From positions 1 through 42,154 of the IMG/VR virus record IMGVR_UViG_3300010362_000043: a stretch of DNA of 42,154 nucleotides. One strand, given 5' to 3'. Below, piece by piece: positions 3,756 to 38,059 of this stretch. Below the pieces are notes generated by a model. The model ran no database searches. It saw nothing but the letters and a program-made list of their open reading frames with translations, and was not told the origin of the DNA. Position 1 is the first letter of the stretch, and every line of letters begins with the position of its first letter. Both the position numbers and the translations under genes were made by a program. The DNA is from a virus. Taxonomy: Duplodnaviria > Caudoviricetes.

Positions 3756-3760
3756 GCAAC

Positions 3761-4236: not shown

Positions 4237-4275
4237 CTATCGGCACGACGCGTTACAAACCTTAGCGAATTTCCC
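4237..4275 (-). promoter_or_regulatory. sigma-28 (FliA/WhiG)-like promoter P1
   Basis: Minus strand GGGAAATTCGC-TAAG-N16-GCCGATAG. Confidence 0.7.
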
Positions 4276-4285
4276 AAGAAATTTC

Positions 4286-5689
4286 ATGGCCGATATAGCG
4301 CCGACAATTCCACGGCTTGAGAATCGAACGCCGGTCGATTGGCTTTCGATCCTTCTTGCGCGGCTTGACGCCCAAGCCCGCCGTGTCGCCGTGCCGGAAG
4401 CGTATTACAACGGCGTCCATCCGCTGCAATTCGCCACAACGAAATTCCGCGAAGCGTTCGGCCAGTTGTTCGGCGCCTTCGCGGATAATTGGTGCGGCAT
4501 CGTCGTGGACGCGCCCGTGGAACGCCTACAGGTGATCGGCTTCCGCTTGGCCGGCGCCGAAAGCGCGGACAACGACGCGTGGGGAATCTGGCAACGCAAC
4601 TCCATGGACGTGGAGTCCGTCATCGCCCACACGGAAGCCGGGAAAGCCGGAACCGCGTACATCTTGGTTGACCCAAACGACGGCGAGCCGCGAATCACGG
4701 TCGAACACGCGTCGCAAGTCGTGGTGGCGAGCGATCCGGGCGACCGGCGTTCGCGCCTAGCCGCGCTCAAGCGATGGCAGGGCGACGACGGCCACCTGTA
4801 CGCCACGGTCTATCTGCCCGACTACGTGGTGAAATTCGAATCCGTCGAACCCGTGCAAATGATCGGCGGCGGGCAAACCGAATACCGGATTCGCACCGAT
4901 GACGCGAGCGGCCCGAACCCGCTCGGCATCGTGCCCGTGGTGCCGTTGCAAAACACGCCCACGCTTCTCTACGGCGGCGAATCGGACTTGAAGCCCGCGA
5001 TTCCGATTCAAAACGCGATCAACAAACTCTGTTCGGACCTCATGGTGGCGTCGGAGTTCGGCGCGTTCCGCCAACGCGTGTTGACCGGCGTGGAGATTCC
5101 GCGCGATCCGGAAACCGGCCGGCCACTCGGCCGCTCCGAGATTACCGCCGCCATGTCGCGACTCTGGACGTTCGAAAGCCCGGACGCCAAGGTGACGGAC
5201 CTTGGGCAAACCGACCTTTCGAATTTCACCAAAGCGGTGGACATGTTCCGCCAAGACCTTGCCGCGCAGACGCGCACGCCACCGCACTACCTACTTGGCC
5301 AGGTGGTCAACGCTTCCGGCGACGCGCTCAAGGTGGCCGAAGCGGGCTTGGTTTCCAAGTGCCGGCGAAAGATTCTCTACTTCTCCGATCCGTGGGAAGA
5401 AGCCATGTCGTTGGCCCTGGCGGCAACGGGCCGCACCGTTGCGCCGGCCGACGTGCAATCGCTTTGGGCCGATCCGGAGCGGACAAGCCTGGCCGAGCTT
5501 GTGGACGCGTCCGTGAAGAAGCGGACGTTGGGCATTCCCTTGGAAGTGATTTGGCTGGAACTCGGCTACACGCCGGCCGAAATCGAAGACATGAAGAACT
5601 TGGCCGGTCTACCCGACCGGCCGCCGCGAACGGCAACGCTCGCGAACGTGCCGCCCGTGATCGACGGCGGCACGCCCACCAACGCATAG
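4286..5689 (+). CDS. portal protein (SPP1 gp6-like)
   Basis: Follows terL; YYNG.HPL, NWCGIVVD..VERL, TRTPPHYL, SGDAL motifs. Confidence 0.93.
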   Translation: MADIAPTIPRLENRTPVDWLSILLARLDAQARRVAVPEAYYNGVHPLQFATTKFREAFGQLFGAFADNWCGIVVDAPVERLQVIGFRLAGAESADNDAWGIWQRNSMDVESVIAHTEAGKAGTAYILVDPNDGEPRITVEHASQVVVASDPGDRRSRLAALKRWQGDDGHLYATVYLPDYVVKFESVEPVQMIGGGQTEYRIRTDDASGPNPLGIVPVVPLQNTPTLLYGGESDLKPAIPIQNAINKLCSDLMVASEFGAFRQRVLTGVEIPRDPETGRPLGRSEITAAMSRLWTFESPDAKVTDLGQTDLSNFTKAVDMFRQDLAAQTRTPPHYLLGQVVNASGDALKVAEAGLVSKCRRKILYFSDPWEEAMSLALAATGRTVAPADVQSLWADPERTSLAELVDASVKKRTLGIPLEVIWLELGYTPAEIEDMKNLAGLPDRPPRTATLANVPPVIDGGTPTNA

Positions 5690-5701
5690 GAGGGGGAACC
5701 C

Positions 5702-6235
5702 GTGGCCGAAGCCACGCCCACCGCCGACGCCAAGCCGGTCGAACCGGCCACGTCGGATACAGGGCCGAAGCCCGCGACGGAACCCGAGAAGGCGCCCGAG
5801 AAGGCGCCGGCGAAGGTTCCTGACGAAGCCTACGTGAAGTCGCTTCGCAAGGAAGCGGCCGACACGAGAAAGCAACTGGAAGCCGCCACCGCGCGGCTAC
5901 AGGAACTTGAAGACCGCGACAAGTCCGAGTTGGAGCGTGCGACCGCACGCGTGGCCGAGAGTGAGCGGCGCGCGGTGGACGCGGAAGCCAAACTTCTCCG
6001 ACTGGAAGTCGCGGCCGAACGCAAATTGAAGGCGTCGGCCGTGGCGCTTCTCCACGGCGACACGCGAGAAGAAATCGAATCTTCGGCAGACGCGCTCGCC
6101 GCGTTCGCCAAAGACAACGAAACGCCATCGCCCGGCTTCGACGGCGGCGCGCGAACAACGCCCGCCGAAACGAAGAAGCCGGAAGTCGCACACAACGATT
6201 GGCTCATGCAAGCGTTGGGTCGCACGCCTTCGTGA
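5702..6235 (+). CDS. capsid scaffolding protein
   Basis: RBS GGAGGGG; coiled coil with KSELER and GDTREEI motifs; precedes capsid gene. Confidence 0.85.
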   Translation: MAEATPTADAKPVEPATSDTGPKPATEPEKAPEKAPAKVPDEAYVKSLRKEAADTRKQLEAATARLQELEDRDKSELERATARVAESERRAVDAEAKLLRLEVAAERKLKASAVALLHGDTREEIESSADALAAFAKDNETPSPGFDGGARTTPAETKKPEVAHNDWLMQALGRTPS

Positions 6236-6267
6236 ACTCGGGCGCGTAGTCGCCCGGAGAAGGAACC

Positions 6268-7206
6268 ATGGCAAATCAGATTCCCATTTCCGGCGCAACG
6301 CCGGCGGCGGGCGGGTATATCCTGCCCTACGAACAGGGCGACATTTTGACCAAGGGCGTCTTGCAGGAAGCCGGCGCTCTGGCCCTGGCGGGCGACTCGC
6401 GCGCCACGTCGGCCCGCAAAACTCAGTTCGGTATTTGGCTCGGCGCGCCCACGGCCGCGTTCGTCGGAGAAGGCGCGGACAAGCCCGTGACGGGTGCCGA
6501 GTTCGGCCAAGCCGTCCTGAACGTCAAGAAGGTGGCAACCATCGTCCTGTTCACGGACGAAATGCTGGAAGACGTGCAAGCGGGCGACCTGAATCCGCTT
6601 GTCGATGCCGGCGTGCGCGAAGCCATCGCGGACGTGATCGACGCCAACATCATCGGCATGGACAACGGCGCCGCGATCACGACCAACTTCGACAACGCCT
6701 TGAACGGCACCACGGCGTCGGTCGAATACGACCAGACCAAGCCGGACGCGATGGCGAAGGCGGTTTCGGCCGCCATGGGCGTCTTGGAAGCCAACGGCTA
6801 CGGCGACGTGGGCCAAATGGGTCTTCTTCTCGCGACCGGCTTCGCGCAAATTCTGCGTGACGCGCGGAGCGCGGCCGATGCCGCGCAACCGATCTACGGC
6901 GCGGGCGGCATGGGCCTTGACCCCACCTACGGCGTCCAGTCGTCCGTGTCGTCCAACCTGACGCCGGCCGGCGCCGCGCCGGCCGCAGGTGGCGTGGTCG
7001 GCTTCGTCGTCTACCGGCCGAATCTCCACGTTCGCCTTCGGCGCGACGTGACCGTGACGACTTCCACGGAAGCGACCGTGAACGACGGCACGGCCGACCG
7101 TTCGCTATTCCAAGAAGACCTGACGGCCGTTCGCTACGAAACCCGGCTCGGGTTCTACGCGCACGACCTCGCCCGCGCCGTCGTGAAGATCACCAACGCG
7201 GCATAA
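6268..7206 (+). CDS. major capsid protein (HK97 fold)
   Basis: AAFVGEGADKP, KKVATIVLFTDEMLED, SLFQEDLTAVRYETRLGF. Confidence 0.95.
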   Translation: MANQIPISGATPAAGGYILPYEQGDILTKGVLQEAGALALAGDSRATSARKTQFGIWLGAPTAAFVGEGADKPVTGAEFGQAVLNVKKVATIVLFTDEMLEDVQAGDLNPLVDAGVREAIADVIDANIIGMDNGAAITTNFDNALNGTTASVEYDQTKPDAMAKAVSAAMGVLEANGYGDVGQMGLLLATGFAQILRDARSAADAAQPIYGAGGMGLDPTYGVQSSVSSNLTPAGAAPAAGGVVGFVVYRPNLHVRLRRDVTVTTSTEATVNDGTADRSLFQEDLTAVRYETRLGFYAHDLARAVVKITNAA

Positions 7207-7210
7207 CGCC

Positions 7211-7507
7211 ATGGCCACCAAGGATGAATTGGTGGCGTTCGGCCAGGCGCACGGCATCGCCGTGGATATGTCGATGTTGAAGGGCGACATTGAAGCGGCG
7301 ATTGCCGACGCCGGCTATGACCCAACGACCATCGGAGTGCAAGCCGTGTCCGAAGAACCGACCGCGCCGGCCAACGGCGAAGAAGAACCGCGTGGGTCAA
7401 GCGACGCGCAGTTTTCCACCTACGCGGAAGTGCAACCCGACACGGACGAACGGCCGGCGCCCGGCCGGCAAGTCGAACAGACTCGCGGAGAGGCGAGCGA
7501 AACCTAG
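7211..7507 (+). CDS. hypothetical head-associated protein (short N-terminal helical motif, acidic tail)
   Basis: ATKDELVAFGQAHGIAV...KGDI resembles HeH-type motifs found after capsid genes. Confidence 0.6.
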   Translation: MATKDELVAFGQAHGIAVDMSMLKGDIEAAIADAGYDPTTIGVQAVSEEPTAPANGEEEPRGSSDAQFSTYAEVQPDTDERPAPGRQVEQTRGEASET

Positions 7508-7747
7508 ATGCCACTTCCCGAACCCCGGTCCGTCGTGGTGCAAATGCCACGGCGGGCAGGGGTCGGGCTAGAGATACCGGAACGCCAAGCGGATTGTTCC
7601 GGTCATCGCCCGTCGTGGTTTCCGTTCCAAGTGAACGTGTGCGACTGCGACGACGCGCCCGACCCCATCCTGTACAGCGGTCGGCAACTTGCCTTGCCGC
7701 CGCCCGCCACGGTCTTGCCGTGGCCACGAACCGACCCGTGCGCATGA
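7508..7747 (+). CDS. hypothetical protein
   Basis: Abuts both neighbours (TAGATG and ATGA junctions). Confidence 0.55.
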   Translation: MPLPEPRSVVVQMPRRAGVGLEIPERQADCSGHRPSWFPFQVNVCDCDDAPDPILYSGRQLALPPPATVLPWPRTDPCA

Positions 7748-8235
7748 CCGTAGAGCCGGCCACCGTTCCGCCGCTCGCCAAGCCCACGCCCGACGACGTG
7801 GCCACGCTTCTCCGCGCGCGGACCAAAGACCTTGACGGTTCCGAGCTTGGCGTGTTCACGGACGCCACGCGGCCCACGGCCGATGAAGTCCAACGGATCA
7901 TCGACCTTGCCTACGCGGAAGTGACGGGCCGCGCCGGCGTCTACATCGGCTCACGATGCGCCGAAGGCGCGAAATCGCTGGTCGTCATCCGCGCCGCCGC
8001 GTGGGTCGAACTCTCCTACTGGCCCGAGCAAATCCGGTCCGACCGTTCCGTCTACGCGGAATTGATCGACCAATGGACGACGGGCATCCTGGCGCTTCTT
8101 GAGTGCGTGCAAGGCAACTTGCCCGGCGATGCCGGCGAGGACGGCGGCACGCTTCACTACCGCTTCGGCGTGCTGGACGTTCACGGCTGGACGGCATCGC
8201 CCTACTACGGCGCGCCGGACGTGCCGGCCGAATAG
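7744..8235 (+). CDS. head-tail adaptor
   Basis: PTPDDVATLLRART, TRPTADEVQRII; position in head-neck module. Confidence 0.7.
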   Translation: MTVEPATVPPLAKPTPDDVATLLRARTKDLDGSELGVFTDATRPTADEVQRIIDLAYAEVTGRAGVYIGSRCAEGAKSLVVIRAAAWVELSYWPEQIRSDRSVYAELIDQWTTGILALLECVQGNLPGDAGEDGGTLHYRFGVLDVHGWTASPYYGAPDVPAE

Positions 8236-8237
8236 GC

Positions 8238-8276
8238 AAAGAAAAACCCGGATCGGAAGCCACTAACCGATCCGGG
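8238..8276 (-). terminator. intrinsic terminator
   Basis: Minus strand CCCGGATCGG-TTAGTGGCTT-CCGATCCGGG-TTTTTCTTT. Confidence 0.85.
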
Positions 8277-8393
8277 CCTTTGGGGGAACCTATCACCACT
8301 AACTTGGTTCCTTCACGTCGGTTCCGGGTTTTCTAGGGTGGTTTCCGGTTCCGCCGCCGCTTTGGGATTTTCCTTGGTGGTTTCCCTTTGCAC
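8238..8393 (-). ncRNA. candidate small RNA, or leaderless 26-aa micropeptide mRNA (8313..8393)
   Basis: Bounded by promoter P2 and a terminator; six GGAA motifs; two hairpins with UUAGUGG in their loops. Confidence 0.55.
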
Positions 8394-8398
8394 TAAGA

Positions 8399-8435
8399 GT
8401 ATCGGCATTGTAGCGCAAACCTTTAGCGAATTCCC
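8399..8435 (-). promoter_or_regulatory. sigma-28-like promoter P2
   Basis: Minus strand GGGAATTCGC-TAAA-N15-GCCGATAC. Confidence 0.7.
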
Positions 8436-8444
8436 GACGACAAT

Positions 8445-8900
8445 ATGCCCGACGATTTCCTACAGGCCAAGGGCGTGGATCGCGCCGTTCGGGACATGAC
8501 CGGCGTGTCCAAGCGCGCGGCCGATATCAAGAAGGCGTCGTTCAAGGTCCGCACGATCTACCGCCAGTCCGAAGAAAAGCGCTTCCAGTCTCGCGGCCGT
8601 GGCACATGGCCACCGCTCAAGGAATCCACCAAGGAATCCAAAGCGCGCCACAACTACGATCCGCGCGTCATGCGCGCGACGAACGCGCTACATCGCGCGC
8701 TCACGTCGCCACGCGCTCGCGGCCAGATTGACGAACGCGACACGGACGAATTCCGGTTCGGCACGGACATTCCCTACGCGCGGTATCACGACACGGGCCA
8801 GGGCGTGCCGCAACGAAAGCTGATCGAACTCACGCCCGCCGAACGCCAGGACATTAGCGACGCTTTGGGCGACTTCATCGCCAAGGGCGAGACACGATGA
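8445..8900 (+). CDS. neck / virion morphogenesis protein (Mu gpG-like)
   Basis: WPPLKEST and FGTDIPYARYHDTG..VPQR motifs. Confidence 0.8.
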   Translation: MPDDFLQAKGVDRAVRDMTGVSKRAADIKKASFKVRTIYRQSEEKRFQSRGRGTWPPLKESTKESKARHNYDPRVMRATNALHRALTSPRARGQIDERDTDEFRFGTDIPYARYHDTGQGVPQRKLIELTPAERQDISDALGDFIAKGETR

Positions 8901-9532
8901 CCGCGCCGTATATCTCCGAAGTCGGGCCGATGGTCACGGGCCGCGACGTGGAGTTGGCCGCAATCGCCACGCTCAAGAAGTGGTCGTCCACCTACTTGGC
9001 CGACGCCGAAGCGCAACTTGGCCGGCCACGCGGAAGTCTGCCGCGCATTCGCGCGTGGACGACCTCGCACGACTTCGAAAAGTGGCCGGAAGACCAACTT
9101 CCGTGCGTGTTGCTTATCTCGCCAGGCTTGGCCGAAGCGCCGAACATGGACGGCGGCGGCGCCTACCGCGCGAACTTCGGGCTTGGCATTGCCACCATCG
9201 TGTCGGCCGCCAGGATGGACGACACGGCCGCGCTCGCCAAGTTGTATTGCGCGGTCATGCGGACGTGTCTCATTCAGAAGCAATCGTTGGAAGGCTTCGC
9301 GTCCGGCGTGACATGGCTGGACGAAAACTACGACGACCTACCGTCGATTGACGACAGGTCGTTGGGCGCCGGCCAAGCGATCTTCGCCGTACAGGTAGAC
9401 AACGTGTCGCAACGCTGGAACGGGCCGGCTTACCCGTGGGCAGTCGTGCCCGAGCCGCCGACCGATCCGATACCGGACGACCCGACCGCTACGCGCGTCG
9501 TGGTCGAAGAAAACCCAATCCCCATAGCCTGA
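8897..9532 (+). CDS. tail completion/terminator protein
   Basis: Position immediately before the sheath gene; ATGA coupling. Confidence 0.6.
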   Translation: MTAPYISEVGPMVTGRDVELAAIATLKKWSSTYLADAEAQLGRPRGSLPRIRAWTTSHDFEKWPEDQLPCVLLISPGLAEAPNMDGGGAYRANFGLGIATIVSAARMDDTAALAKLYCAVMRTCLIQKQSLEGFASGVTWLDENYDDLPSIDDRSLGAGQAIFAVQVDNVSQRWNGPAYPWAVVPEPPTDPIPDDPTATRVVVEENPIPIA

Positions 9533-9545
9533 AAGGCGGCACGAT

Positions 9546-10664
9546 ATGACGCGGCCCGGAGTGGTCGTTACCTCGCGCGCGGAACCGCCGCCACGCTCCG
9601 CGCCGACCGACGTTGGAATGGCGTTCATGGTGGGCGCCACCGAAAAGGGCGACGACGTGCAAATGGTCACGTCGATGCTGCAATATCAAACGGTCTTTGG
9701 GGTCCGCCAGGGCTTCACGGACACCTACGACGCGGCGGAAACCTACTACCAAGAAGGTGGCGCCAAGCTCACGGTTGCGCGCACCAACGGCACCGATGCC
9801 ACGGACGTGGAAACGGCGTTGGCGCTTCTCACCCGTGACCTTGGCCCTGGCCAGGTCTTCGCGGTCGGGTCGGCCGGCTTCGCCGCACACGACGAATTGA
9901 TCGCCCATGCCGCCGCCAACAATCGCATAGCGATACTGGACAACGACCCGGCGTCGATGACGGCGAGCGCGCTGGAAGCCACGGCGGCGGGCCTACAGTC
10001 CAACATGAACGCGCGCTATGCGGCCCTGTTCGCGCCTTATGCCATCGTGCCGGGCGTGACGACGGCGGACCTTCGCACGGTTCCCTTCTCCGCGCTGGAA
10101 GCCGGCATCATCGCGCGCAACGACGCGCGCTTCTCGCCCAACGTGGCGGCGGCGGGCGTCAACGGTCGGTCGCGTTTCGCGGTGGACTTGACGGCACGTT
10201 TCACCGATCCGGAGCGCGAGTCGCTGAACGACGCCGGCGTCTGTATCGCGCGCACGGTCTACGGCGAAGTGCGCGCCTACGGCTATCGCACGCTCGCGGC
10301 GCTCGACACCGGATGGGGTCTTCTCTCCAACGCGCGACTCAACATGGAAATTGTGGCCCTGGCCGAAGAAATCGGCGAGCGCTACGTGTTCAGTCAAATC
10401 GACGGCCGGCGCGTGACCATTTCTCAGTTCGGCGCCGACCTGACCGGCATGCTCATTCCCTACTACGAAGCCGGATCGCTATTCGGTACGTCGTTTGACG
10501 ACGCATGCTACGTGGACGTTGGCCCGGCCGTGAACACGCTGGAAACCATCGCGGCCGGCGAACTCCGAGCGATCATCGGGCTACGTATGTCGCCGTTCGC
10601 CGAGCTTGTGACCATCGAAATCGTGAAGGTGGCAACGGAAACGCCACTTTCCGTGGCCGCGTAA
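9546..10664 (+). CDS. contractile tail sheath protein (compact)
   Basis: MTRPGVVV start, NRIAILD, PNVAAAG, YGYRTL, SPFAELVTIEI. Confidence 0.9.
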   Translation: MTRPGVVVTSRAEPPPRSAPTDVGMAFMVGATEKGDDVQMVTSMLQYQTVFGVRQGFTDTYDAAETYYQEGGAKLTVARTNGTDATDVETALALLTRDLGPGQVFAVGSAGFAAHDELIAHAAANNRIAILDNDPASMTASALEATAAGLQSNMNARYAALFAPYAIVPGVTTADLRTVPFSALEAGIIARNDARFSPNVAAAGVNGRSRFAVDLTARFTDPERESLNDAGVCIARTVYGEVRAYGYRTLAALDTGWGLLSNARLNMEIVALAEEIGERYVFSQIDGRRVTISQFGADLTGMLIPYYEAGSLFGTSFDDACYVDVGPAVNTLETIAAGELRAIIGLRMSPFAELVTIEIVKVATETPLSVAA

Positions 10665-10676
10665 AGGGGTGGCCGT

Positions 10677-11087
10677 ATGTCTCGCCAGGATCAATACGCG
10701 GTTTCGATGACCGTGGACGGAACGAAGTTCGGCGTCTTCGACAAGTTGTCGGGCGGCGAAATCGACTCGGAAGAAACGAAGTACAAGCCAGGCGGCATGG
10801 CGCCGCCCGTGTCGCTTGGTGGTTCCGTCGAAGTGGGGAACCTGACCATTTCGCGCCTGTACGTGTTGAACCGCGACCACGACACGATCCATTGGCTTAT
10901 CTCCCGCGTGGGGAAGGGCCAGGTGGTCGTGAGCCGTCAACCGCTGGACGTGGACGGCAACGCCTACGGCCGGCCGCTCGTCTACACGGGCACGCTCAAG
11001 ACGGTTACGCCACCCGAAGTGGACTCCGAATCGTCCGACGCGGCCCTAGTGGAGTGCGAAATCACGCCGGCCGGCACGGTCGGATGA
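10677..11087 (+). CDS. tail tube protein
   Basis: Follows sheath; FDKLSGGE, YKPGGM, DSESSDAA. Confidence 0.85.
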   Translation: MSRQDQYAVSMTVDGTKFGVFDKLSGGEIDSEETKYKPGGMAPPVSLGGSVEVGNLTISRLYVLNRDHDTIHWLISRVGKGQVVVSRQPLDVDGNAYGRPLVYTGTLKTVTPPEVDSESSDAALVECEITPAGTVG

Positions 11088-11584
11088 CCGACAACGGAAC
11101 CAACGGCGCCGGCGCGTCGCACTTGGACTTTCTCCGGGCGCGACACGCGGCGCTCACCAAGGACCGCACGCTGGACTTGGAAGTGCCCGGCTACGCGCAC
11201 CGCTTGGTGATCCGCTACGGCCGCGTGCCGTGGTCGGTCGTCGGCCGCGCGCAAGAGTTGTTCGCCAACCCTGGCCCGGACCACGAAGGAACGCTTCTCG
11301 CGCAAGTGGACTTCTTGGTGGCCGCGTGCCGAGAAGTGTTGGTGCGCGACGACGACGGCACGTTGAAGTCCATCGACCCGTCCGGCGAGCCGCGCCGCTT
11401 CGACCCGACGTTGGCCGAACTCTTGCGCTTCGATACCAAGACGGCACGCGAAGTAGTGCGCGAGTTGTTCCGCAACGACCCGGCCGTGGCCGTGCAAGCC
11501 GGCGAAGTCATGTCGTGGTCGGTCAACGCCGAAGAAGACGCGGCCGAAGAATTCATGGGGGAATCCGGGCCAGTCGTGAAGTGA
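11084..11584 (+). CDS. tail assembly chaperone
   Basis: Between tube and tape measure; ends just after a slippery G GGG GAA at 11557-11563. Confidence 0.75.
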   Translation: MTDNGTNGAGASHLDFLRARHAALTKDRTLDLEVPGYAHRLVIRYGRVPWSVVGRAQELFANPGPDHEGTLLAQVDFLVAACREVLVRDDDGTLKSIDPSGEPRRFDPTLAELLRFDTKTAREVVRELFRNDPAVAVQAGEVMSWSVNAEEDAAEEFMGESGPVVK

Positions 11585-11763
11585 CGACGGCCGCAATCCT
11601 CTGCCTTCTCGGGCTGGACGGATGGCGGCTCATCACGACTGGCGATCCGGTCGAAGCCATGGTTTTGCAAGCCGTTGGCGAACAAGCCGGACGGCAAATC
11701 CAGACCATTCACAAGTCGTTGGCCGTGGAAATCGCCAACGCCATCGCACGGTCGCAAAAGTAG
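11557..11763 (+). CDS. -1 frameshift extension of tail assembly chaperone (or separate GTG11581 gene)
   Basis: The -1 frame is open across the slippery site to TAG11763 (GIRASREVTTAAILCLLG...). Confidence 0.6.
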   Translation, partial: GGIRASREVTTAAILCLLGLDGWRLITTGDPVEAMVLQAVGEQAGRQIQTIHKSLAVEIANAIARSQK

Positions 11764-12162
11764 ATGGAACCTTGCATTCTCTGGACGGGTAGCCGCAACG
11801 CGGACGGCTACGGAACCATGTCGCGCAATCGGAAGGCGCATCGCGTCGCGTGGGAGCATGAGCGCGGGCCAATTCCGGCCGGCATGTCTGTTCTTCACCG
11901 TTGCGACACGCCGGCGTGCGTGAACGTCGCGCATCTATTCCTTGGCACGCAAGCGGACAACATGGCCGACATGATGGCCAAGGGTCGCGGAGCGCGGCAC
12001 GATGGCGTCCACAACGGGCAAGCGAAGCTGAGCGCCGAAGACGTGCGCGCGATTCGTGCCGACACTCGCGGCGCCTTTGCGCTAGCGCGTGCCTACGACG
12101 TGGCGCCCGTGACTATCTGGCGCGTGAAGACTGGCCGTGCCTACGCTCGCGTGGGGCGATGA
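11764..12162 (+). CDS. HNH homing endonuclease
   Basis: CILWTG..GYG..AHRVAWE..VLHRCDTPACVNVAHLFLGTQADN plus a C-terminal HTH. Confidence 0.92.
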   Translation: MEPCILWTGSRNADGYGTMSRNRKAHRVAWEHERGPIPAGMSVLHRCDTPACVNVAHLFLGTQADNMADMMAKGRGARHDGVHNGQAKLSAEDVRAIRADTRGAFALARAYDVAPVTIWRVKTGRAYARVGR

Positions 12163-12165
12163 CCT

Positions 12166-16426: not shown

Positions 16427-16429
16427 CCC

Positions 16430-23464: not shown

Positions 23465-23483
23465 CCGTTCGACCCGACGAATT

Positions 23484-27895: not shown

Positions 27896-28020
27896 AGCCG
27901 CCGCCGAAGCCCGACCCGAAGTGCGGCTTCTGCCAGGGGAAGCCGGTCTATTCGGCATCGCATTGGATCGGCGGGCCGCGCCGCGTCGTGCCATGCCCGC
28001 GTTGCGGTGGCATGCCGTGA
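27892..28020 (+). CDS. small Zn-ribbon peptide
   Basis: CGFC...CPRC; ATGA and GTGA overlaps. Confidence 0.55.
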   Translation: MKPPPKPDPKCGFCQGKPVYSASHWIGGPRRVVPCPRCGGMP

Positions 28021-28861: not shown

Positions 28862-28863
28862 CG

Positions 28864-29178
28864 ATGGATTCTCGGGCAAAAGGCGCGCGTGGCGAACTGG
28901 AATTCATCCATCGCCACCTTGCGCCGTATTGGCCGGACGCGAAGCGCAACCTAGACCAATTCGGCGACGACAAACGCGACGCCATCCAATGCGCGGGCAT
29001 CCATTGGCAAATCAAGCGCACGGAACGGCTGGAACTCTGGCGCGCCATCCGCCAAGCCGAACAGGAAGCCATCGGCTCGGACGTGCCCGTGGTCGCCTTT
29101 CGCCGCAACCACTCCGGGTGGTATTGCGTCGCGCCGGCCGACTTCCTTTGCGCCTTGATCGCGTGGCGGGACCGATGA
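28864..29178 (+). CDS. Holliday junction resolvase (Hjc-like)
   Basis: SRAKGARGELE, QIKRTE, PVVAFRRN..W. Confidence 0.8.
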   Translation: MDSRAKGARGELEFIHRHLAPYWPDAKRNLDQFGDDKRDAIQCAGIHWQIKRTERLELWRAIRQAEQEAIGSDVPVVAFRRNHSGWYCVAPADFLCALIAWRDR

Positions 29179-31031: not shown

Positions 31032-31981
31032 CCGACGCCGACCCGATACCCGGACAAACCACGGTCTACGACTTCTTGGACGACGACGAATGCGTGTGGG
31101 CTCAACTTTCAGTGGCGTGGGCGGTCTTGACCTTGGACTACATCGGGCCGGACACGGCGTCGCTTTCCAAGTCGAATCCGACCCATACCGACGTGCCGTG
31201 TTGGCTCGCCACTGGCCGAACGTACCGCGACACGACGACGTGCGGACCTTCGACGGCCGACCCTGGCGTGGCCACATCGACCTTCTCGCGGGCGGCTTCC
31301 CCTGCCAAGACCTTTCCGTCGCCGGCCAACGCGCCGGACTGGCCGGCAGGCGAAGCGGGTTGTTCTACGACTTCGCGCGCATCGCAGTTGACGCTATTGG
31401 ACCCGGAAACTTCGTTCTTCTTGAGAACGTCGCCGGTCTTCTGTCATCGCACCGTGGCCGAGATTTCGCCATCCTTCTCGCGGCGCTGGACGAACTCGGG
31501 TTTTCGGATATCGCCTGGCGAGTGTTGGATAGCCGTTACTTCGGAGTGCCCCAACGGCGAAGGCGAGTCTTCATCCTTGGCCGACGTGGTGATGGCCGAA
31601 GTTGCGCCACGATTCTTCTTGAGCCGGAAGGCGGCGGCGGGAATTTTGCGGCGCGCCGTGAGGCGCGGAAGGGTCTTGCCGGAAGCGTTGCGGACGGCGC
31701 TAGAAGCGCTCGCACACTCACCCGACGCACGGCCGGACGATTCGACGGCGAAACCGAAGACTTCGTGGTTCAACGGCAAGCCGACCGAAGCTATTGGGTC
31801 GAAGACTTCCGAAACGGAACACTCACGTCCGACCCTGGCCGAACCGACCGAAAGCCCGTCATCTTCGGTGCGGCGCTTGACGCCCACGGAATGCGAACGC
31901 CTACAGGGCCTCCCGATGGGGTGGACGGCGATAGCGTGGAAATCGACCCGCCGCCGGACGGCCGGCGGTACGCGGCCATAG
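31028..31981 (+). CDS. alternative-frame MTase beta-like subunit carrying motif IX
   Basis: ATGA-coupled to the helicase; SSSLADV, FFLSRKAAAGILRRA, VRRLTPTECERLQGLPMGWT. Confidence 0.75.
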   Translation: MTDADPIPGQTTVYDFLDDDECVWAQLSVAWAVLTLDYIGPDTASLSKSNPTHTDVPCWLATGRTYRDTTTCGPSTADPGVATSTFSRAASPAKTFPSPANAPDWPAGEAGCSTTSRASQLTLLDPETSFFLRTSPVFCHRTVAEISPSFSRRWTNSGFRISPGECWIAVTSECPNGEGESSSLADVVMAEVAPRFFLSRKAAAGILRRAVRRGRVLPEALRTALEALAHSPDARPDDSTAKPKTSWFNGKPTEAIGSKTSETEHSRPTLAEPTESPSSSVRRLTPTECERLQGLPMGWTAIAWKSTRRRTAGGTRP

Positions 31982-32055
31982 GCGACGCCGTGACCGTGCC
32001 CGTCGCCGAGTGGATCGGAAAGCGACTCGCCATGTGGGAAGCGGGCGAGTTGTGA
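31090..32055 (+). CDS. DNA cytosine-C5 methyltransferase (alpha-like; N-terminal motifs and motif X)
   Basis: FSGVGG, GGFPCQDLS, ENV, QRRRRVF, RYAAIGDAVTVPVAEWIG. Confidence 0.92.
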   Translation: MRVGSTFSGVGGLDLGLHRAGHGVAFQVESDPYRRAVLARHWPNVPRHDDVRTFDGRPWRGHIDLLAGGFPCQDLSVAGQRAGLAGRRSGLFYDFARIAVDAIGPGNFVLLENVAGLLSSHRGRDFAILLAALDELGFSDIAWRVLDSRYFGVPQRRRRVFILGRRGDGRSCATILLEPEGGGGNFAARREARKGLAGSVADGARSARTLTRRTAGRFDGETEDFVVQRQADRSYWVEDFRNGTLTSDPGRTDRKPVIFGAALDAHGMRTPTGPPDGVDGDSVEIDPPPDGRRYAAIGDAVTVPVAEWIGKRLAMWEAGEL

Positions 32056-32240
32056 ACTCCGCGCCACCCATCTTGGTCACGCGCGAAGAAGCGGCAGAAA
32101 TGCTCGCCATGTCGCTTCGGCATTTCGAACGCTTCGTGCAACCGCACGTCCGAATCGTGCGCGTCGGTCGGCGCCGGCTCGTGCCCGTGATCGAACTTCA
32201 ACGGTGGGCCGAAGAACGCGCGGAGTGCGCGACGGACTAA
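32052..32240 (+). CDS. xis: excisionase / HTH protein
   Basis: VTREEAAEMLAMS...RVGRRRLVP; directly upstream of the integrase. Confidence 0.75.
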   Translation: MNSAPPILVTREEAAEMLAMSLRHFERFVQPHVRIVRVGRRRLVPVIELQRWAEERAECATD

Positions 32241-32265
32241 TGCCCGTCCGCTATCGTGGCGATAG
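32238..32265 (+). promoter_or_regulatory. sigma-28-like promoter P3 (integrase)
   Basis: C-TAAT-N16-GGCGATAG, followed by an arm-type repeat and RBS AAAGGAATCCGC. Confidence 0.45.
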
Positions 32266-32299
32266 AGGGACTACCCCACGACCGTAAAGGAATCCGCTA

Positions 32300-33484
32300 A
32301 TGAAGCCCAAATGGCTACCGACGAAGACGAACCGCCGCGTCTTCATCCGCCACGAACGCGGTTGCCCGGCATACGAAGAAAAGCGTTGCCGTTGCGCGCC
32401 GAAATATCGCGGCGAACTCTGGAACTCGGAGAAGCGCCGGCCGGACAAATCCCACGCCTTCGACGCCTACGGCGAAGCCGAGTCGTGGGTGACGGATCGG
32501 CGCAACGGCGTGGAGAATCCCGCGCCGAAGCCCAAGCCCGGCCAGGGCATGACGAACGACGCGTTCATGGCCATGTTCTTCGCCGCCATGAAGTCCGGTC
32601 ACGCGCGCGGGAAGAAGCAACGGCGCTACGCGGAGAAGACCACGCGCGACTACGAAGCGATTTGGAAGCTGCATTGGTCGGGCCACGTCGGCGCCGACTT
32701 CGTGGACGGCATGACGACCGAAGCGTGGCAACGCGCCTACGTGTTGGTGGCCACCACGGGCGCGCGTGATCGCCACGGCGAACAGACGGGCGAGCCGCTT
32801 TCCGATCACACGTTGCAATGCCTTCTGACGCCGATCCGCGCCGCCTACCGTTGGGCCACGCATCCGTCGCGCAAGCTCGTGGCTTCCAACCCGACCCGAG
32901 ACATGGACGTGCCGGCCGGCGAGCGTTCCAAGCGCAAGCGCGTGGCGCCACCCGAAGACGTGCCGCGCCTTCTCGCCGCGCTCACGGACCTCCCGATGCG
33001 CGTCTTTTGGGGGTTCGCCTTCTACGCGGGCATGCGCCGTGCCGAAATCCTGGCGCTGGATTGGGCCGACGTGGGCGGCGGCGAAATCGTGGTGCCCGAG
33101 TCGAAGACCGCGACCGGCCGCGAACGCCGAATCCCCATCGTGCCGCAACTGGCCGCGATCCTCACGGACTACCGCAAGTCGATGGGCGCCGGCGCGTTCA
33201 TCGGCCCGATCCTGCCCGGCGTGCGCGCGTTCCGCTTGAGCGACGAAACGGTCTACCGCCGCACGCGCGAGTTGTGGGAAGCGGCCGGCCACACGGTCTA
33301 CACGCCGCACGAAGGTCGCCACACGTCCGCGTCCATCGCCGTGGCCAACCGCGACGTGTCGCTTGCCGATCTACAGGCGTGGCTCGGGCACGCGTCGCTG
33401 GAAGAAACGGCCGGCTACGTGCAAACCCTGCCCGGCTACCGCCGCGAGTCGGCGGCGAACCGACTGGCCGCGTCGTTCGGGTAG
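32300..33484 (+). CDS. int: tyrosine integrase
   Basis: GMRRAEI (R), SKT (K), HEGRH, LGH, Y in TAGY. Confidence 0.93.
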   Translation: MKPKWLPTKTNRRVFIRHERGCPAYEEKRCRCAPKYRGELWNSEKRRPDKSHAFDAYGEAESWVTDRRNGVENPAPKPKPGQGMTNDAFMAMFFAAMKSGHARGKKQRRYAEKTTRDYEAIWKLHWSGHVGADFVDGMTTEAWQRAYVLVATTGARDRHGEQTGEPLSDHTLQCLLTPIRAAYRWATHPSRKLVASNPTRDMDVPAGERSKRKRVAPPEDVPRLLAALTDLPMRVFWGFAFYAGMRRAEILALDWADVGGGEIVVPESKTATGRERRIPIVPQLAAILTDYRKSMGAGAFIGPILPGVRAFRLSDETVYRRTRELWEAAGHTVYTPHEGRHTSASIAVANRDVSLADLQAWLGHASLEETAGYVQTLPGYRRESAANRLAASFG

Positions 33485-33511
33485 TCTCGCGGGCGGTCTA
33501 GCCCGCCATCG

Positions 33512-33541
33512 ACGGGCCACGTCTTCGGGCGTGGCCCGTTG
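33512..33541 (+). terminator. hairpin after integrase
   Basis: ACGGGCCACG-TCTTCGGG-CGTGGCCCGT with a weak U-tail. Confidence 0.55.
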
Positions 33542-33837
33542 TCGTTCTACGAAGGGGTGGGTCGGTTCATCGGCCGCGTCCGGCGATCCATCCCGATACC
33601 CACCCCTAGCCGGTTCCCATCCGGCCATCGCCCGAACCCGGCGCCGGCGCCGGCACCAACGCGTCCGTTGCGTGGGGCGATATCTCCATGACTTGTGGCG
33701 CGCGTCGGCCGCGATTGCCGCCAGTCCGCCGACCCTACGAAGCCTTCGGCACCCTAGCGGCGATTCGGACGGGCCGACCTTTCTTCGTAGCGCTTGCGCA
33801 AGCGCGCCGGCGCGGATTTTGGCACGGATCGCGCGGA

Positions 33838-34047
33838 ACTACCCCATATCGCACCCCACGACTACCCCACGCCTGGCCGGAATGGCTCTAGTTAGCCAAG
33901 GATGGGGCTTGCCGGGTAGATGAAGTCCATGTGCCACAGGCCGCATGGCTATGCGGGTTTTCCGATGGCCAAGCCAAAGTCGAACGTCAGTAGACGACAC
34001 GAAACGCCAGTTCGCGACGCCGTTCTACCCCACGACTACCCCACGCC
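33838..34047. other. putative attP with integrase arm-type repeats
   Basis: Five (CT)ACCCCAC(G)-like units in two clusters; ACCCCACGACTACCCCACGCC is identical at 33853 and 34027. Confidence 0.75.
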
Positions 34048-34064
34048 AGATACCTTTCGGTCTT

Positions 34065-34259
34065 ATGGGAACCATCGGCATAGCCCGACGCTACGAAGCC
34101 ATGTACGGCCCACGCGCCGTGAAGATGTTCGTTCGCGACCTCATGGCCGGCGACGCGGCAACGTTCAAGGTCGGCTACACGCGCGACAACGCGATCTTGG
34201 CGGCGGCGGACGCGTTCGGCATCGACCGCGACGAAGCCGAGAGAAGGGCCGACGTGTGA
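34065..34259 (+). CDS. hypothetical protein, probably leaderless
   Basis: TACCTT -10-like hexamer at 34051 just before the ATG. Confidence 0.6.
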   Translation: MGTIGIARRYEAMYGPRAVKMFVRDLMAGDAATFKVGYTRDNAILAAADAFGIDRDEAERRADV

Positions 34260-34915
34260 CGCGAGAAATCATCGACGCGCCGTCCGTCACGGCCGACGAA
34301 GCGCGGGCCATGACCGAAGACGTGCGCGCCGACGTGCGCGCACTCTGGCGCAAGGTCTTGGGCTTGTACGAAGCCGGCGTTCACCTGGCGCTCGGCTACG
34401 TGTCGTGGTCGGACTATTGGGCGGGCGAGTTCGGCCAGTCGGGCACGCGCGGCGATCAGTTGGTGCGCGCCGGCCGCGTCGTCCGAGCGCTTGAGCGCGC
34501 CGACGTGGAGATTCTGCCGCGCAACGATTGGGTGGCCGGCCAGTTGATACCCGTCTACCGGGTGGCGCCCGAAGACCTACCCGACGTGTGGGCGCGCGCC
34601 GTGAAGCTCGGCAAGGGCCAACCGACGCGCGATCACATAGCCCAAGTGGTCGAACCGTACCGGCGTCGGCGCCAGGGCTACCGCAACGCGGCCGAAGGCG
34701 CGAAGGTCCGTCGCACGCGCGAGCGCGCCGGCGTGCCCATCCTTCACGCGCACGCGAACGCGGAAGAAGCGGCGGCGAACATCGAAGCCGCGTTGAACTC
34801 GGGCATGTCGGACGACGTGATGCGCGAGTGGTGGGAACACGCGCACGAAGCGGCCAGGCTTCTCGCGGAAATCGCGGAGAAAATCCGCCGCGAAATGTCT
34901 TCGGGAATTCGCTAA
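34256..34915 (+). CDS. hypothetical protein
   Basis: GTGA overlap; HLALGYVSWSDY..EFG motif recurrent in phage proteins. Confidence 0.7.
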   Translation: MTREIIDAPSVTADEARAMTEDVRADVRALWRKVLGLYEAGVHLALGYVSWSDYWAGEFGQSGTRGDQLVRAGRVVRALERADVEILPRNDWVAGQLIPVYRVAPEDLPDVWARAVKLGKGQPTRDHIAQVVEPYRRRRQGYRNAAEGAKVRRTRERAGVPILHAHANAEEAAANIEAALNSGMSDDVMREWWEHAHEAARLLAEIAEKIRREMSSGIR

Positions 34916-34940
34916 GGTAATGTAACCGCAGTGCCGATAC
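34903..34940 (+). promoter_or_regulatory. sigma-28-like promoter P4
   Basis: GGGAATTCGC-TAAG-N16-GCCGATAC. Confidence 0.7.
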
Positions 34941-34980
34941 AGCGTATGTAAGGCAAGACCGACTTCGAAAAGGAATCCGC

Positions 34981-35316
34981 ATGAAGAACTGGAACTATCA
35001 CCTTGAAGCGCTCAACACTCACGGTTGCCCGGAGTGCGGAAGCGACGACCTCGCCTTTTGGGGCGAGACTGGCGACCGCACGGACGCCGACATTACCGAC
35101 CATGTGGAGTGCCACGCCTGCGGCACGTCTTGGGAAGCGCCGACCATCGGTCGCCTTCTCTCGGCCATGAATTCCGTGGGCATGCAACCCATCATGGATT
35201 CGGACGGCTGGAACGATGCCCTTCGCCGCGCCGACGACGTGAACCTGAACGACATGGCCGACGAAGACGCGGCCATCGTCGCGCGTGGCATCGTCGCCCA
35301 CGTCGCGCACGGCTAG
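34981..35316 (+). CDS. Zn-ribbon acidic hypothetical protein (monocistronic cassette)
   Basis: CPECGS...CHACG; RBS GAAAAGGAATCCGC; own promoter and terminator. Confidence 0.75.
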   Translation: MKNWNYHLEALNTHGCPECGSDDLAFWGETGDRTDADITDHVECHACGTSWEAPTIGRLLSAMNSVGMQPIMDSDGWNDALRRADDVNLNDMADEDAAIVARGIVAHVAHG

Positions 35317-35343
35317 CCTCACCCGAACATAGGACGGACCACG

Positions 35344-35368
35344 ACGGGCGCCTTCGGGCGCCCGTTTT
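35344..35368 (+). terminator. intrinsic terminator
   Basis: ACGGGCGCC-TTCG-GGCGCCCGT-TTT. Confidence 0.8.
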
Positions 35369-35432
35369 GTCGTTGTATCGGACCTTCGCGCTTCGGGTCG
35401 CCTTTACGTGCCTAGCGTGATACGTTCCGGTC

Positions 35433-36242
35433 ATGGGAACCCAAGCGCCGGCCCGAACCACGGCCGGTCGTGGTGGCGGGAAGCGCCGAACGTGGCCGTA
35501 TCGGTTCGAAATGGTCGGATTGGACCGATTGGTGATCGACGTGGACTACCAACGGCCGTTGACTTCGTTCGTAGAGGAAGTCGCCGCCAACTACGACCCT
35601 GCCATGGTGGGCACTCTGATTGTGTCCGGCCGCAAGAACGGCAAGTGGCCGGTCATCGACGGGCAGACACGCCTTGAAGCCATGCGACGCAACGACGAAC
35701 CGGCCGCGCCGTGTCTCGTCTACGAAGCCTTGACGCGCGAACAGGAAGCCGAGTTGTTCGCGGACCTGCAAACCAAGCGGCGCGGCATGGCCACCTATCT
35801 GCGCTTCCGGGCCGCGCTCGTGGCCAAGCGGCCCGAAGCCGTCGCCATCGCCGGCATTGTCCAAGCGGCGGGCTTCGAACTGGACGTGAACGAAACCGCC
35901 CACACGGTCAAGTCGATAGCGGCGCTGGAATATGCCTACCGCCGCGACCCGGAACTTCTCGCGTCGGTCCTGGCCGTCATCGCCCAAGCGTGGCCCGACC
36001 CTGACACGGAACTGCGCACGGTCGGCGACCTCATTCGTGGCCTGGCCGTCTTTCTCGGCCGAGAAAAGCGCGTGGATCACGACAAGCTCGTGGCGCGACT
36101 TTCGGCCGTCACGCCACGCATGATCCGCCACCGCGCCAACGCGCTCATGGAAGGGTCCGGGCACGGAAGTGGCGGGCGCGCCGGCTACATGGCCGACGCC
36201 ATCCTAGGCATCTACATGAGGGGGAAGCGTGGCGGCGCTTGA
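35433..36242 (+). CDS. ParB/Srx-like N-terminal domain protein (DUF6551-like)
   Basis: IDVDYQRPL, VIDGQTRL, EQEAELF. Confidence 0.75.
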   Translation: MGTQAPARTTAGRGGGKRRTWPYRFEMVGLDRLVIDVDYQRPLTSFVEEVAANYDPAMVGTLIVSGRKNGKWPVIDGQTRLEAMRRNDEPAAPCLVYEALTREQEAELFADLQTKRRGMATYLRFRAALVAKRPEAVAIAGIVQAAGFELDVNETAHTVKSIAALEYAYRRDPELLASVLAVIAQAWPDPDTELRTVGDLIRGLAVFLGREKRVDHDKLVARLSAVTPRMIRHRANALMEGSGHGSGGRAGYMADAILGIYMRGKRGGA

Positions 36243-37140
36243 CGACGCAACCTACGACGCCGGCCGTCTTCTTCGTCAGGCGCGAGCGCTGGACACCCGC
36301 GCCGAAGCGCTCCGCAACGAAGCCCGCGAACTCGCGCGCGAAGCCACGGACCTGCGTATCGAAGCCGGGCGCCTGACACGCGGGCCACTGGAAGCGGCGG
36401 CGGCGGCCGGCGCGCGCGGAGAAGACCCCTTCACGGCGCGCGTAGAAGCCGTCCTAGACGGTTCGGGCGCGCTATCCATGTCCGACCTCACGGACCACCT
36501 GAACGCGACGCCTACGCGCGTGCGGGCGGCCTTGGCGCGGCTTGAGCGCGACGGGCGCGTGGCCCGCTCGGGTATCAAGCGCGGCACGCGCTATCGGATC
36601 GTCAACGCCGACGACGAAGCGGCCAGGGTCCACGACTTCCGGACCTACGAAACCATGGTGCGCGACGCGGCCGTCCGGCTGGACACCTTCGAATTCGTGG
36701 ACCTACAGCGCGAGTTGTCCGACCTCTCGGAAGCGACGTTGCGCCGTTGGCTTCGCCGGCTACAGGAACGCGGGCTATTCGAAGCCGAGCGCGTCGGCAC
36801 CACTTGGGTCTACGCGTACGTGTCGGGCGACCCGGCGAGCAACCCGACGCATCGCCCGCGCCACGAGTCGCCGGAAGCCGAAGCGCGGCGACTGGCCGGC
36901 CCGGAGCGCGCGCGCGGCGACGCGGTGATGGGCACGGGCGCCATGAAGCTCGGCCGCAAGGAAATGGACGACCTCATGCGTGAAGTCCGCGCTCACGGCG
37001 TCACGGTCAAGAAGACCCACGGCGGCCACCTGGCGTGGCTATGCCCGAGCGGCGCGACCGTGCGCACGGCTTCCACGCCGTCGTCGTCGTCCACGGACAA
37101 GATTCGCAAGGAACTGCGCGACGCCGGCGTGCCGGTATGA
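36229..37140 (+). CDS. coiled-coil + two winged-HTH + C-terminal HicA-like domain
   Basis: RVRAALARLERDGRV; SEATLRRWLRRLQERG; GVTVKKTHGGHL...TASTPS...ELRDAG. Confidence 0.6.
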   Translation: MAALDDATYDAGRLLRQARALDTRAEALRNEARELAREATDLRIEAGRLTRGPLEAAAAAGARGEDPFTARVEAVLDGSGALSMSDLTDHLNATPTRVRAALARLERDGRVARSGIKRGTRYRIVNADDEAARVHDFRTYETMVRDAAVRLDTFEFVDLQRELSDLSEATLRRWLRRLQERGLFEAERVGTTWVYAYVSGDPASNPTHRPRHESPEAEARRLAGPERARGDAVMGTGAMKLGRKEMDDLMREVRAHGVTVKKTHGGHLAWLCPSGATVRTASTPSSSSTDKIRKELRDAGVPV

Positions 37141-37250
37141 CGCCGACACCGCGCTACCGCGACGTGCTACGCGCGCGCGACCTCACGTTGACGGGCGGGC
37201 ATCGACGCCCATGGTGGATGCGAGCATGGCGATGGTTCACACGGCGCTAG
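37137..37250 (+). CDS. small basic peptide
   Basis: ATGA overlap; 37 aa, Trp/Arg-rich end. Confidence 0.4.
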   Translation: MTPTPRYRDVLRARDLTLTGGHRRPWWMRAWRWFTRR

Positions 37251-37537
37251 GCGACAACCTTCGTGTGGCCCGGCTCACGCGCGGCTTGTCGGCCGCGCGG
37301 CTTGGCGAACTGGCCGGCGTCGCCCCGTCCCACATATCCAGTATCGAAACGGGCAAGCGACCGAATCCGGGCGCCTTCACGCTGTACGCCATCGCGCGCG
37401 TCTTGGGCGTGCGACTTGAAGACCTTATGGGCGTGCCGCGCGTGGAGAGGACGACCAAGGGTCGTTCCAACGCGCGGCGCGTGGGGAATGTTGTCGATTT
37501 TGGGGAACGATGGAGTTCGCGCAACGTGACGAGCTAG
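37226..37537 (+). CDS. XRE HTH regulator
   Basis: LGDNLRVARLTRGLS..HISSIETGKRPNP; start uncertain (37211/37226/37232). Confidence 0.8.
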   Translation: MAMVHTALGDNLRVARLTRGLSAARLGELAGVAPSHISSIETGKRPNPGAFTLYAIARVLGVRLEDLMGVPRVERTTKGRSNARRVGNVVDFGERWSSRNVTS

Positions 37538-38028
37538 GGGCGAACGTCCACCGAATCCGAGAAGTGCGTGGCTTGACGCAAGGCATGCTCGCGGCCAGGG
37601 CGAACACGACGCGCAGCTACATCGCGTCGCTGGAAGGCGGCCGGATTCGCAACCCTGGCGTCGAATCGCTGTACCCCATCGCTCAAGCGTTGGGCGTGAC
37701 CATGGAAGCGCTCATGGGCCGGCCGTCGTTGACCATGGAAGCGGCGCTCCGCGAGCCGGCCGACTACACGATGGTTCACGCGCAACGCGAGTTGGAAGCG
37801 CGCTTGCCATTGATCGGCACCAAACCCTTCGACTCCATGACCGTGGGGCAAATGGAAGCCTACGTGCCTGGCGTGGACGGCGCCGACATGCTGGAAGCGG
37901 CGGCCGAATGCGTCGGGCGGTTCCTGGCCGCGTCGTTGGAGTTGCCGGCCGATTGGTCGGCCACGTCGTTTTACGCGGCCGGCGCATTGGCGATGGCATT
38001 GGTACGCGATAATTCCCCACCGAAATAG
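37510..38028 (+). CDS. XRE HTH regulator
   Basis: RGLTQGMLAARANTTRSYIASLEGGRIRNP. Confidence 0.8.
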   Translation: MEFAQRDELGANVHRIREVRGLTQGMLAARANTTRSYIASLEGGRIRNPGVESLYPIAQALGVTMEALMGRPSLTMEAALREPADYTMVHAQRELEARLPLIGTKPFDSMTVGQMEAYVPGVDGADMLEAAAECVGRFLAASLELPADWSATSFYAAGALAMALVRDNSPPK

Positions 38029-38031
38029 GGC

Positions 38032-38059
38032 TATAGTCTTCGGCCGGCCTAGTCGATAC
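38032..38059 (+). promoter_or_regulatory. sigma-28-like promoter P5
   Basis: C-TATA-N16-GTCGATAC in an intergenic gap. Confidence 0.5.

Follow-up and report, generated by a model that had tools for sequence, protein, structure and literature searches.

Candidate promoters for the host sigma factor WhiG precede accessory units and the integrase gene of a temperate actinobacterial myovirus

The 42,154 bases of IMG/VR record IMGVR_UViG_3300010362_000043 (the window analyzed here, at its full length; 66% G+C) represent a temperate actinobacterial myovirus of 42 kb. Its genome runs from a small terminase at the start to an HNH gene at the end, with a contractile tail between, and also encodes recT/exonuclease, primase, excisionase-integrase (xis-int), and additional helix-turn-helix (HTH) genes. 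A cI-like HTH gene (23844-24248, minus strand) faces a cro-like gene, and the nearest relatives of the portal belong to actinobacterial phages, at less than 40% identity. A sequence-only reading had proposed that five sites at gene boundaries, resembling promoters of the FliA/WhiG (sigma-28) family, place the integrase and accessory genes under a motility or developmental sigma factor of the host. A narrow regulon read by host WhiG is likely real, and from it we infer control of lysogeny.

All five motifs were found where they had been reported. P1 (4229..4275, minus strand) carries a −35 element CTAAGG (4265-4260), a −10 element GCCGATA (4244-4238), a predicted start at 4229, and the upstream sequence GGGAAATTCG. 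P2 (8391..8435, minus strand) combines CTAAAG (8426-8421) with GCCGATA (8406-8400) and a predicted start at 8391. On the plus strand, P3 (32237..32273), ahead of int, has CTAATG and GGCGATA with a predicted start at 32273; P4 (34903..34948) has CTAAGG (34912-34917) and GCCGATA (34933-34939) with a predicted start at 34948; and the doubtful site P5 (38031..38058) has CTATAG and GTCGATA. Scored against CT[A/C]AAG-N14/15-GCCGATA, P2 is a perfect match, one base is mismatched at P1 and at P4, and two bases are mismatched at P3 and at P5; the earlier reading had ranked the int and P5 matches as weaker. The −10 element is exact at P1, P2, P4, and in a distant phage, L141, and differs by one base outside the central CGA at P3, P5, and in a close relative, L048; the −35 element, T(A/C)AA or CTCA, is exact at P2, L141, and L048, with one mismatch at P1 and P4 (CTAAGG), P3, and P5.

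Other elements recur around these boxes. The word GGGAA(A)TTCGC occurs in exactly three copies, immediately upstream of P1, P2, and P4, as had been noted, and a leader of the form GACC..AAAGGAATCC(G)C..ATG is common to P1, P3, and P4. The A+T fraction upstream of P1, P2, P4, and P5 is 0.47 to 0.56, versus 0.34 for the genome. Because the shared upstream word is not a feature of host promoters (among 58 host sites, a single one is immediately preceded by TTCG), we read it as a sign of common ancestry or as an UP-like tract, for which the UP element of Bacillus subtilis hag is a parallel.

Matches of this quality are rare in simulated sequence. With at most one mismatch in the −35 element and an exact −10, the window has 3 sites. 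Genomes simulated with an order-4 Markov model averaged 0.10, and not one of the 300 had as many as 3; with each of five pairs of control spacers, the counts were 1, 0, 0, 0, and 0. At the two-mismatch tier there are 9 sites versus a mean of 1.8, four of them within genes or antisense to genes. Control spacers gave 0 to 6 sites at this tier, and P3 and P5 are therefore not significant by sequence alone and need other support. Taking all evidence together, P1, P2, and P4 are likely WhiG promoters, P3 is probably one, with less confidence, and P5 is unlikely to be.

The sequence-only reading had each site pointing into a short transcription unit, which holds for P1, P2, and P4, each with a terminator, whereas P3 leads into int and P5 into at least five small genes. 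The P1 unit lies antisense between terL and portal and consists of two small open reading frames (ORFs) and a terminator. A 63-amino-acid orphan ORF (4002..4193, minus strand), for which no relative was found, follows the leader AAAAGGAATCCGCAAATG; its product is predicted to be a small beta-barrel, with an SH3/Tudor-like fold as a lead only. It is followed by a 53-amino-acid ORF of no family (3804..3965, minus strand) and an intrinsic terminator (3757..3785, minus strand) with a 9-bp stem and a T run on the minus strand. The terL-portal gap is 530 nt here, versus −42 to +30 in 35 of 37 rows for related loci, three of which duplicate a record; both exceptions are L141.

L141 (portal 51% and terL 32% identity) was retrieved by its −10 element plus leader, and its −35 element lay outside the retrieving pattern. 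In its terL-portal slot, a perfect site is accompanied by two copies of the leader AAAGGAATCCGCAAATG and by two unrelated ORFs, with a hairpin at the close; the promoter boxes are kept and the upstream word GGGAA(A)TTCG is not. The gap holding the P2 unit is likewise unusual, at 209 nt versus at most 78 nt in 28 of 28 related loci. The P1 and P2 units are thus antisense insertions without counterpart in relatives, except for L141 in the P1 slot.

The P2 unit is predicted to yield a noncoding RNA of about 150 nt (8240..8391, minus strand) with six GGAA words, GGAAACCACC twice, and a 10-bp terminator stem (8247-8276). Its leader is degenerate, the ATG is lost, and there is no credible ORF; a 104-amino-acid antisense frame (8299-7985) was rejected as a gene, running through the terminator and belonging to no family. 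Six GGAA words in 110 nt is the single highest window genome-wide, and when plain GGA is counted, 0.6% of genome windows reach six. CsrB and RsmZ are CsrA-sequestering RNAs with repeated GGA, and the P2 RNA resembles them in being short and ORF-less, with repeated GGA and a terminator, in a phage whose candidate hosts encode CsrA. It is unlike them in having no Rfam match and no homologue found, including among cultured phages; only three of its six GGA words are ANGGA and one of six is predicted unpaired, which does not fit ANGGA exposed in hairpin loops. The CsrA motif is CAAGGAUG (PMC13418256). The P2 RNA could be a CsrA decoy, and because of those two counts, a decayed cassette is as likely.

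P3 lies between xis and int. The excisionase-like HTH gene (32052..32240, plus strand) ends with a stop codon that overlaps the P3 −35 element, and the predicted message therefore carries int alone (tyrosine integrase, 32300..33484, plus strand). A CTACCCCAC repeat (32271..32279, plus strand) covers the predicted P3 start, is also present in L048, and is a candidate arm site for Int. L048 is the sole close relative with DNA for this slot (xis 84%, int 71%), where it has CTCAAG-N15-GTCGATA (one mismatch), the same leader, and an inserted 77-amino-acid ORF; CTACCCCAC is kept over the start even though spacer and cargo have changed. A likeness between this 77-amino-acid protein and the 63-amino-acid protein of the P1 unit was suspected, and comparison gave no support for it. 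More distant elements in metagenome-assembled genomes (MAGs) had no WhiG site in the xis-int slot. Integrase scans of viral contigs returned no close relative, and a metagenome scan returned L048 besides the phage's own record (L047, excluded). Another search gave 18 integrase relatives, possibly including L048; relatives on contigs of 35 to 43 kb are P0004, P0024, P0025, P0027, P0028, and P0044.

Downstream of int lies a candidate attP (33839..34044, plus strand), with CTACCCCA(C) repeats at 33839, 33862, 34025, and 34036 and a 22-bp candidate core at 33915-33936. Four copies of the CTACCCCAC word thus surround the core, which is how an attP and its arm sites are laid out, and with the same word over the P3 start, this suggests that Int could repress its own promoter. 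The core matches exactly a cobalamin-independent methionine-synthase-like gene in actinobacterial genomes. In one DNA sequencing run, possibly the source itself, the region was contiguous and the att core showed no joint.

P4 leads to a 111-amino-acid protein (34981..35316, plus strand) with two CxxC pairs, zinc-ribbon-like, whose Lar-like match reached only an E value of 0.035; an intrinsic terminator (35343..35372, plus strand) closes the unit. Neither the P1 nor the P4 cargo belongs to a confident protein family, and no relatives were found for the genes flanking P4. Right after this terminator, TG-A-TACGTT (35418-35435, plus strand) stands seven bases before the ATG of a DUF6551/ParB-like gene and is likely a leaderless extended −10 housekeeping promoter. 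The first gene after P5 (38115-38345, plus strand) encodes a 76-amino-acid coiled-coil protein ending RRRRGRPRKS, a tail that we take to be AT-hook-like and reminiscent of Lsr2/H-NS-type DNA binders. An inverted repeat around P5, GTCTTCGG, is a common word with 17 copies and was given no weight, and a further leader-like word, AAGGAATCCGC (39418-39426, minus strand), has no ATG and no WhiG site upstream.

The likely host class is Thermoleophilia, an assignment inferred rather than proven. It follows from the labels of integrase loci and from matches to the Xis-like protein in Solirubrobacteraceae MAGs (61% and 54% identity in two MAGs). An alignment-based integrase scan of species genomes gave 11 loci, 8 labeled Solirubrobacterales, Solirubrobacteraceae, Thermoleophilaceae, or Gaiellales and 3 labeled only Actinomycetes or Actinomycetota. 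The capsid protein did not reveal the host, as at a threshold of 1e-20 it matched none of the 291 phylum and 121 class genomes scanned, and no tRNA was found in a search of the phage sequence. Below, class genomes are those in the class of G004, a Solirubrobacteraceae MAG, and candidate hosts are five of the integrase-neighbor MAGs (G001 to G005), all incomplete genomes.

Because the pattern had been shaped after phage sites, it was tested in host genomes. Across 61 class genomes, 54 of which had at least one, there were 181 exact matches to the pattern, versus 18 for a reversed-pattern control, an approximately 10-fold enrichment, and a spacer of 13 was used in just 3 of 150 listed rows of class matches. 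No match was present in 5 of 7 genomes lacking an over-cutoff WhiG, versus 2 of 54 genomes with WhiG; the motif tracks whiG across class genomes. A pyrimidine-purine step at +8/+9 after GCCGATA, which formed part of no search pattern and thus serves as an independent test, was present at 57 of 81 host sites (11 to 29 at neighboring offsets), and 12 of these 81 sites have ATG or GTG exactly at +9. The step likely marks the start site in the host class. In the phages, P1, P2, P3, P4, L048, and L141 all have T-purine at +8/+9 (T/A at P1), whereas P5 has A/A and 18 other GnCGATA words in the window have the step in 5 cases, equal to a background of 0.27. The proposal that the sites match the sigma-28/WhiG promoter motif of the likely host class was supported.

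ORFs were scanned behind host sites (19 of 32 listed in one set, 10 of 13 in another, with wrong-looking frames left out), and among their products are pilins, PilM, PilN, a PilC-like protein, and FlaG, as well as three RpoD-like sigma factors, an extracytoplasmic function (ECF) sigma factor, PAS/GAF proteins, and regulators of the LuxR type. Two candidate hosts have pilus genes behind WhiG-type sites, and the pilin motif was found in 80 of 101 class genomes. In three class genomes (L193, L197, and L202), RpoD-like sigma genes lie behind WhiG-type promoters, two of them leaderless at +9.

The suggested check of the predicted host for fliA/whiG succeeded for WhiG (over cutoff in 135 of 151 class genomes and in all five candidate hosts) and not for flagellar genes: of 151 class genomes, 15 gave a flagellin match, and none of the five candidate hosts, which are incomplete, did so. 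A flagellar regulon, and with it the link to motility, was therefore dropped in favor of type IV pili. All five candidate hosts encode RsiG (PF22802) over cutoff, three of the five have exact WhiG sites, and CsrA is present in all five and in 46 of 151 class genomes. Solirubrobacterales-type MAGs had CsrA with no flagellin match, and several pilin leaders behind WhiG sites are GGA-rich; when the 81 host sites were ranked by GGA content, the top 15 offered no conspicuous GGA-rich, ORF-less host RNA. These host results are in line with published work: in Rubrobacter, for which start-site mapping has been done, WhiG/RsiG is predicted to control type IV pili, and WhiG with a single-motif RsiG occurs in Rubrobacter and Thermoleophilia (PMC8325347).

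The trait was seen in three phages only: the window, L048, and L141. Among 32 related virus records, 3 matched with at most one mismatch, namely L141, included for its motif, and two coding-like matches; 8 records at least 90% complete gave a single match, also coding-like. A viral scan with the extended motif returned 17 matches, none related and by estimate about the number expected by chance, two of which (L008 and L015) are promoter-like. Scans for the −10 element plus leader gave 24 and 23 matches, among which only L141 was relevant, and a leader-only scan gave 12, with L141 again alone relevant. L015 (G634) is an unrelated 161-kb phage, 38% G+C at the locus, in which 15 sites match CT[A/C]A[A/G]G-N14/15-GCCGATA with at most one mismatch, all of them on one strand (mostly 118300-158488, minus strand), versus 0 controls; most of those listed have the pyrimidine-purine step, and a 259-amino-acid ORF has a weak sigma region 2 match below cutoff.

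The best single mechanism, to which we give about an even chance, is that WhiG promoters couple phage genes to the cyclic di-GMP (c-di-GMP) and pilus state of the host. RNA polymerase carrying host WhiG would read P1, P2, P4, and probably P3, so that free WhiG would turn on short accessory units and an integrase-only message. WhiG would be free in the predicted low-c-di-GMP, pilus-making state of the likely Thermoleophilia host. A module of promoter plus leader (an AT-richer tract, −35, −10, and AAAGGAATCCGC leader) appears to have been copied ahead of changing cargo. Without depending on cI/cro, it would be turned on either when the phage enters a cell with active WhiG or when a lysogen passes into the WhiG-active state. 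From P3, Int would be made without Xis, favoring integration or retention, and Int bound at CTACCCCAC over the start could then shut P3 off.

Several observations weigh against this coupling. The scoring pattern was settled after P2, L048, and L141 had been seen. The CTAAGG variant of P1 and P4 is rarer and weakly enriched in hosts (38 matches versus 24 controls in 151 genomes, with a spacer of 14 or 15 in 36 of the 38), and it would fail the exact −35 query of PMC12871210. Only 4 of the 30 best pilin loci have an exact site within 350 nt, many of which loci may be internal to operons, and two of the five candidate hosts have no exact site at all. The integrase loci that point to the host show 27 to 35% identity across longer alignments, and the att core does not narrow the host, occurring in 5 of 151 class and 14 of 301 phylum genomes. 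CheckV puts the completeness of the record at 91%. For P3, there are two mismatches and a single supporting relative, and int is co-oriented with early genes upstream. The motif expected in related genomes did turn up in L048 and L141, but 31 portal or capsid relatives chosen without regard to it had no intergenic site. The proposed tie between lysogeny and host state depends on P3, as at cI/cro, where a TTGACA lies at 24394-24399, no WhiG-type site is present even when two mismatches are allowed.

A rival account, somewhat unlikely in our judgment, accepts the sites as WhiG promoters that sense nothing. WhiG occurs almost universally and may be active most of the time when Thermoleophilia grow, so that moron-like cargo would simply have gained a strong promoter for the early phase or the lysogen, with the int site being incidental. 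The wide occurrence of WhiG in class genomes and its predicted control of RpoD-like sigma factors fit this account, as do cargo that differs among the window, L141, and L048, the lack of a site at cI/cro, and related integrative elements (L036 and L054) with TANNNT-type words, read by eye, in the xis-int slot. However, RsiG in every candidate host implies that WhiG is likely gated, and L048 keeps both the int site and the repeat overlapping it despite a changed spacer and cargo. A more elaborate version of coupling, in which WhiG replaces a CII-type activator, the GGAA RNA soaks up CsrA, and integration and superinfection control follow the piliated, susceptible state, strikes us as less probable still.

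Two further readings are improbable, and to a similar degree. The motifs could be promoters of the housekeeping sigma factor (HrdB/SigA) in another register, given TACAAT directly before GCCGATA at P2, TATCGT likewise at P3, and TGTTATATT in the L048 spacer. Yet none of the five sites has a SigA-type pair (TT[GT]-N-16/19-TANNNT) or an extended −10 (TGn-TANNNT), scans of 1-20000 and 22155-42154 found no sigma-70 consensus promoter, and each site would need a separate register, whereas GnCGATA, a spacer of 14 or 15, and the +8/+9 step are constant. Alternatively, a phage-encoded sigma factor or regulator might read the sites or bind the shared GGGAA(A)TTCG element, which is not a feature of host sites; the phage has several HTH proteins, and L015 pairs its 15 boxes with a weak sigma-like ORF. 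Against this, the window has no sigma region 2 match at E≤1, in keeping with the earlier statement that it has no clear sigma gene, and its sole region 4 match is an HTH repressor under cutoff; in core boxes and start step, the sites are the same as the host-class motif, and L141 lacks the upstream word. Least probable are chance matches or functionless decayed copies of one old promoter, for which the lost ATG of the P2 leader and the 16 of 18 upstream bases common to P2 and P4 (which are therefore not independent origins) could speak, because −35, −10, +8/+9, and terminators were kept while spacers diverged.

Three other gene groups lie apart from the predicted promoters. YhhQ/Vut_1-like and DpdA genes (823-2105, plus strand) sit between the small and large terminase genes; the remaining 7-deazaguanine pathway was not found among ORFs scanned, and the pair is missing from related loci. 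An Rpf-like transglycosylase (28376-28861, plus strand) lies amid replication genes, and a collagen-repeat, membrane-like protein (41020-41781, plus strand) is encoded directly ahead of the HNH gene.

The predicted arrangement recalls two features of lambdoid phages. Morons are genes inserted between head genes with their own promoter and terminator, driven by sigma-70, and the promoter lambda pI, which lies at the end of xis and needs phage CII, drives only int, giving Int without Xis. Insertion with its own promoter and terminator is predicted from sequence for the P1 and P2 units; both jobs would fall here to an alternative sigma factor of the host, and the inserts are antisense.

Among the closest published parallels, the WhiG2/RsiG regulon of Rubrobacter radiotolerans and other Actinomycetota has the same T(A/C)AA-N-GCCGATA promoters and the same combination of a c-di-GMP-gated sigma factor in nonsporulating basal Actinobacteria with predicted pilus targets (PMC8325347, PMC12871210). 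Its targets are chromosomal, whereas the sites here are on a phage; neither "phage" nor "Thermoleophil" appears in the main text of PMC12871210. In pili- and flagellotropic alphaproteobacterial phages, CtrA sites ("lytic deferment") likewise put a few uncharacterized genes under a host appendage regulator, but CtrA belongs to the response regulators and its role was tested in binding and transcription assays, whereas the regulator here is a sigma factor, predicted from sequence, whose targets would include integrase (PMC9437464). A host state regulator also enters phage gene control through the Spo0A sites of phi29, a Bacillus phage, and in prophages under LexA control, but those systems repress or release lytic genes, whereas the sigma factor here would activate accessory units, with no site at the lytic switch (PMC9437464). 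The SAS/ESAS elements of cluster K mycobacteriophages share a conserved Shine-Dalgarno-core word with extra bases before the ATG of nonstructural genes, often with a second upstream element; their sequence differs, and that element is a 17-bp inverted repeat instead of a bipartite sigma-28-type promoter (PMC3203893).

A literature search of listings and the openings of abstracts, with most subscription papers outside its coverage, turned up no phage gene reported to be driven by a host FliA/WhiG promoter, and phages that read host master regulators are already known for CtrA, Spo0A, and LexA. The scope of the present case is three phages, with cargo of no confident family and an uncultured host. 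It provides a first motif, start-site rule, and pilus-centered target list for WhiG in Thermoleophilia. WhiG has been called the only sigma factor known to be under direct c-di-GMP control (PMC12871210), and if the coupling is true, these promoters would let a phage read c-di-GMP with DNA alone.

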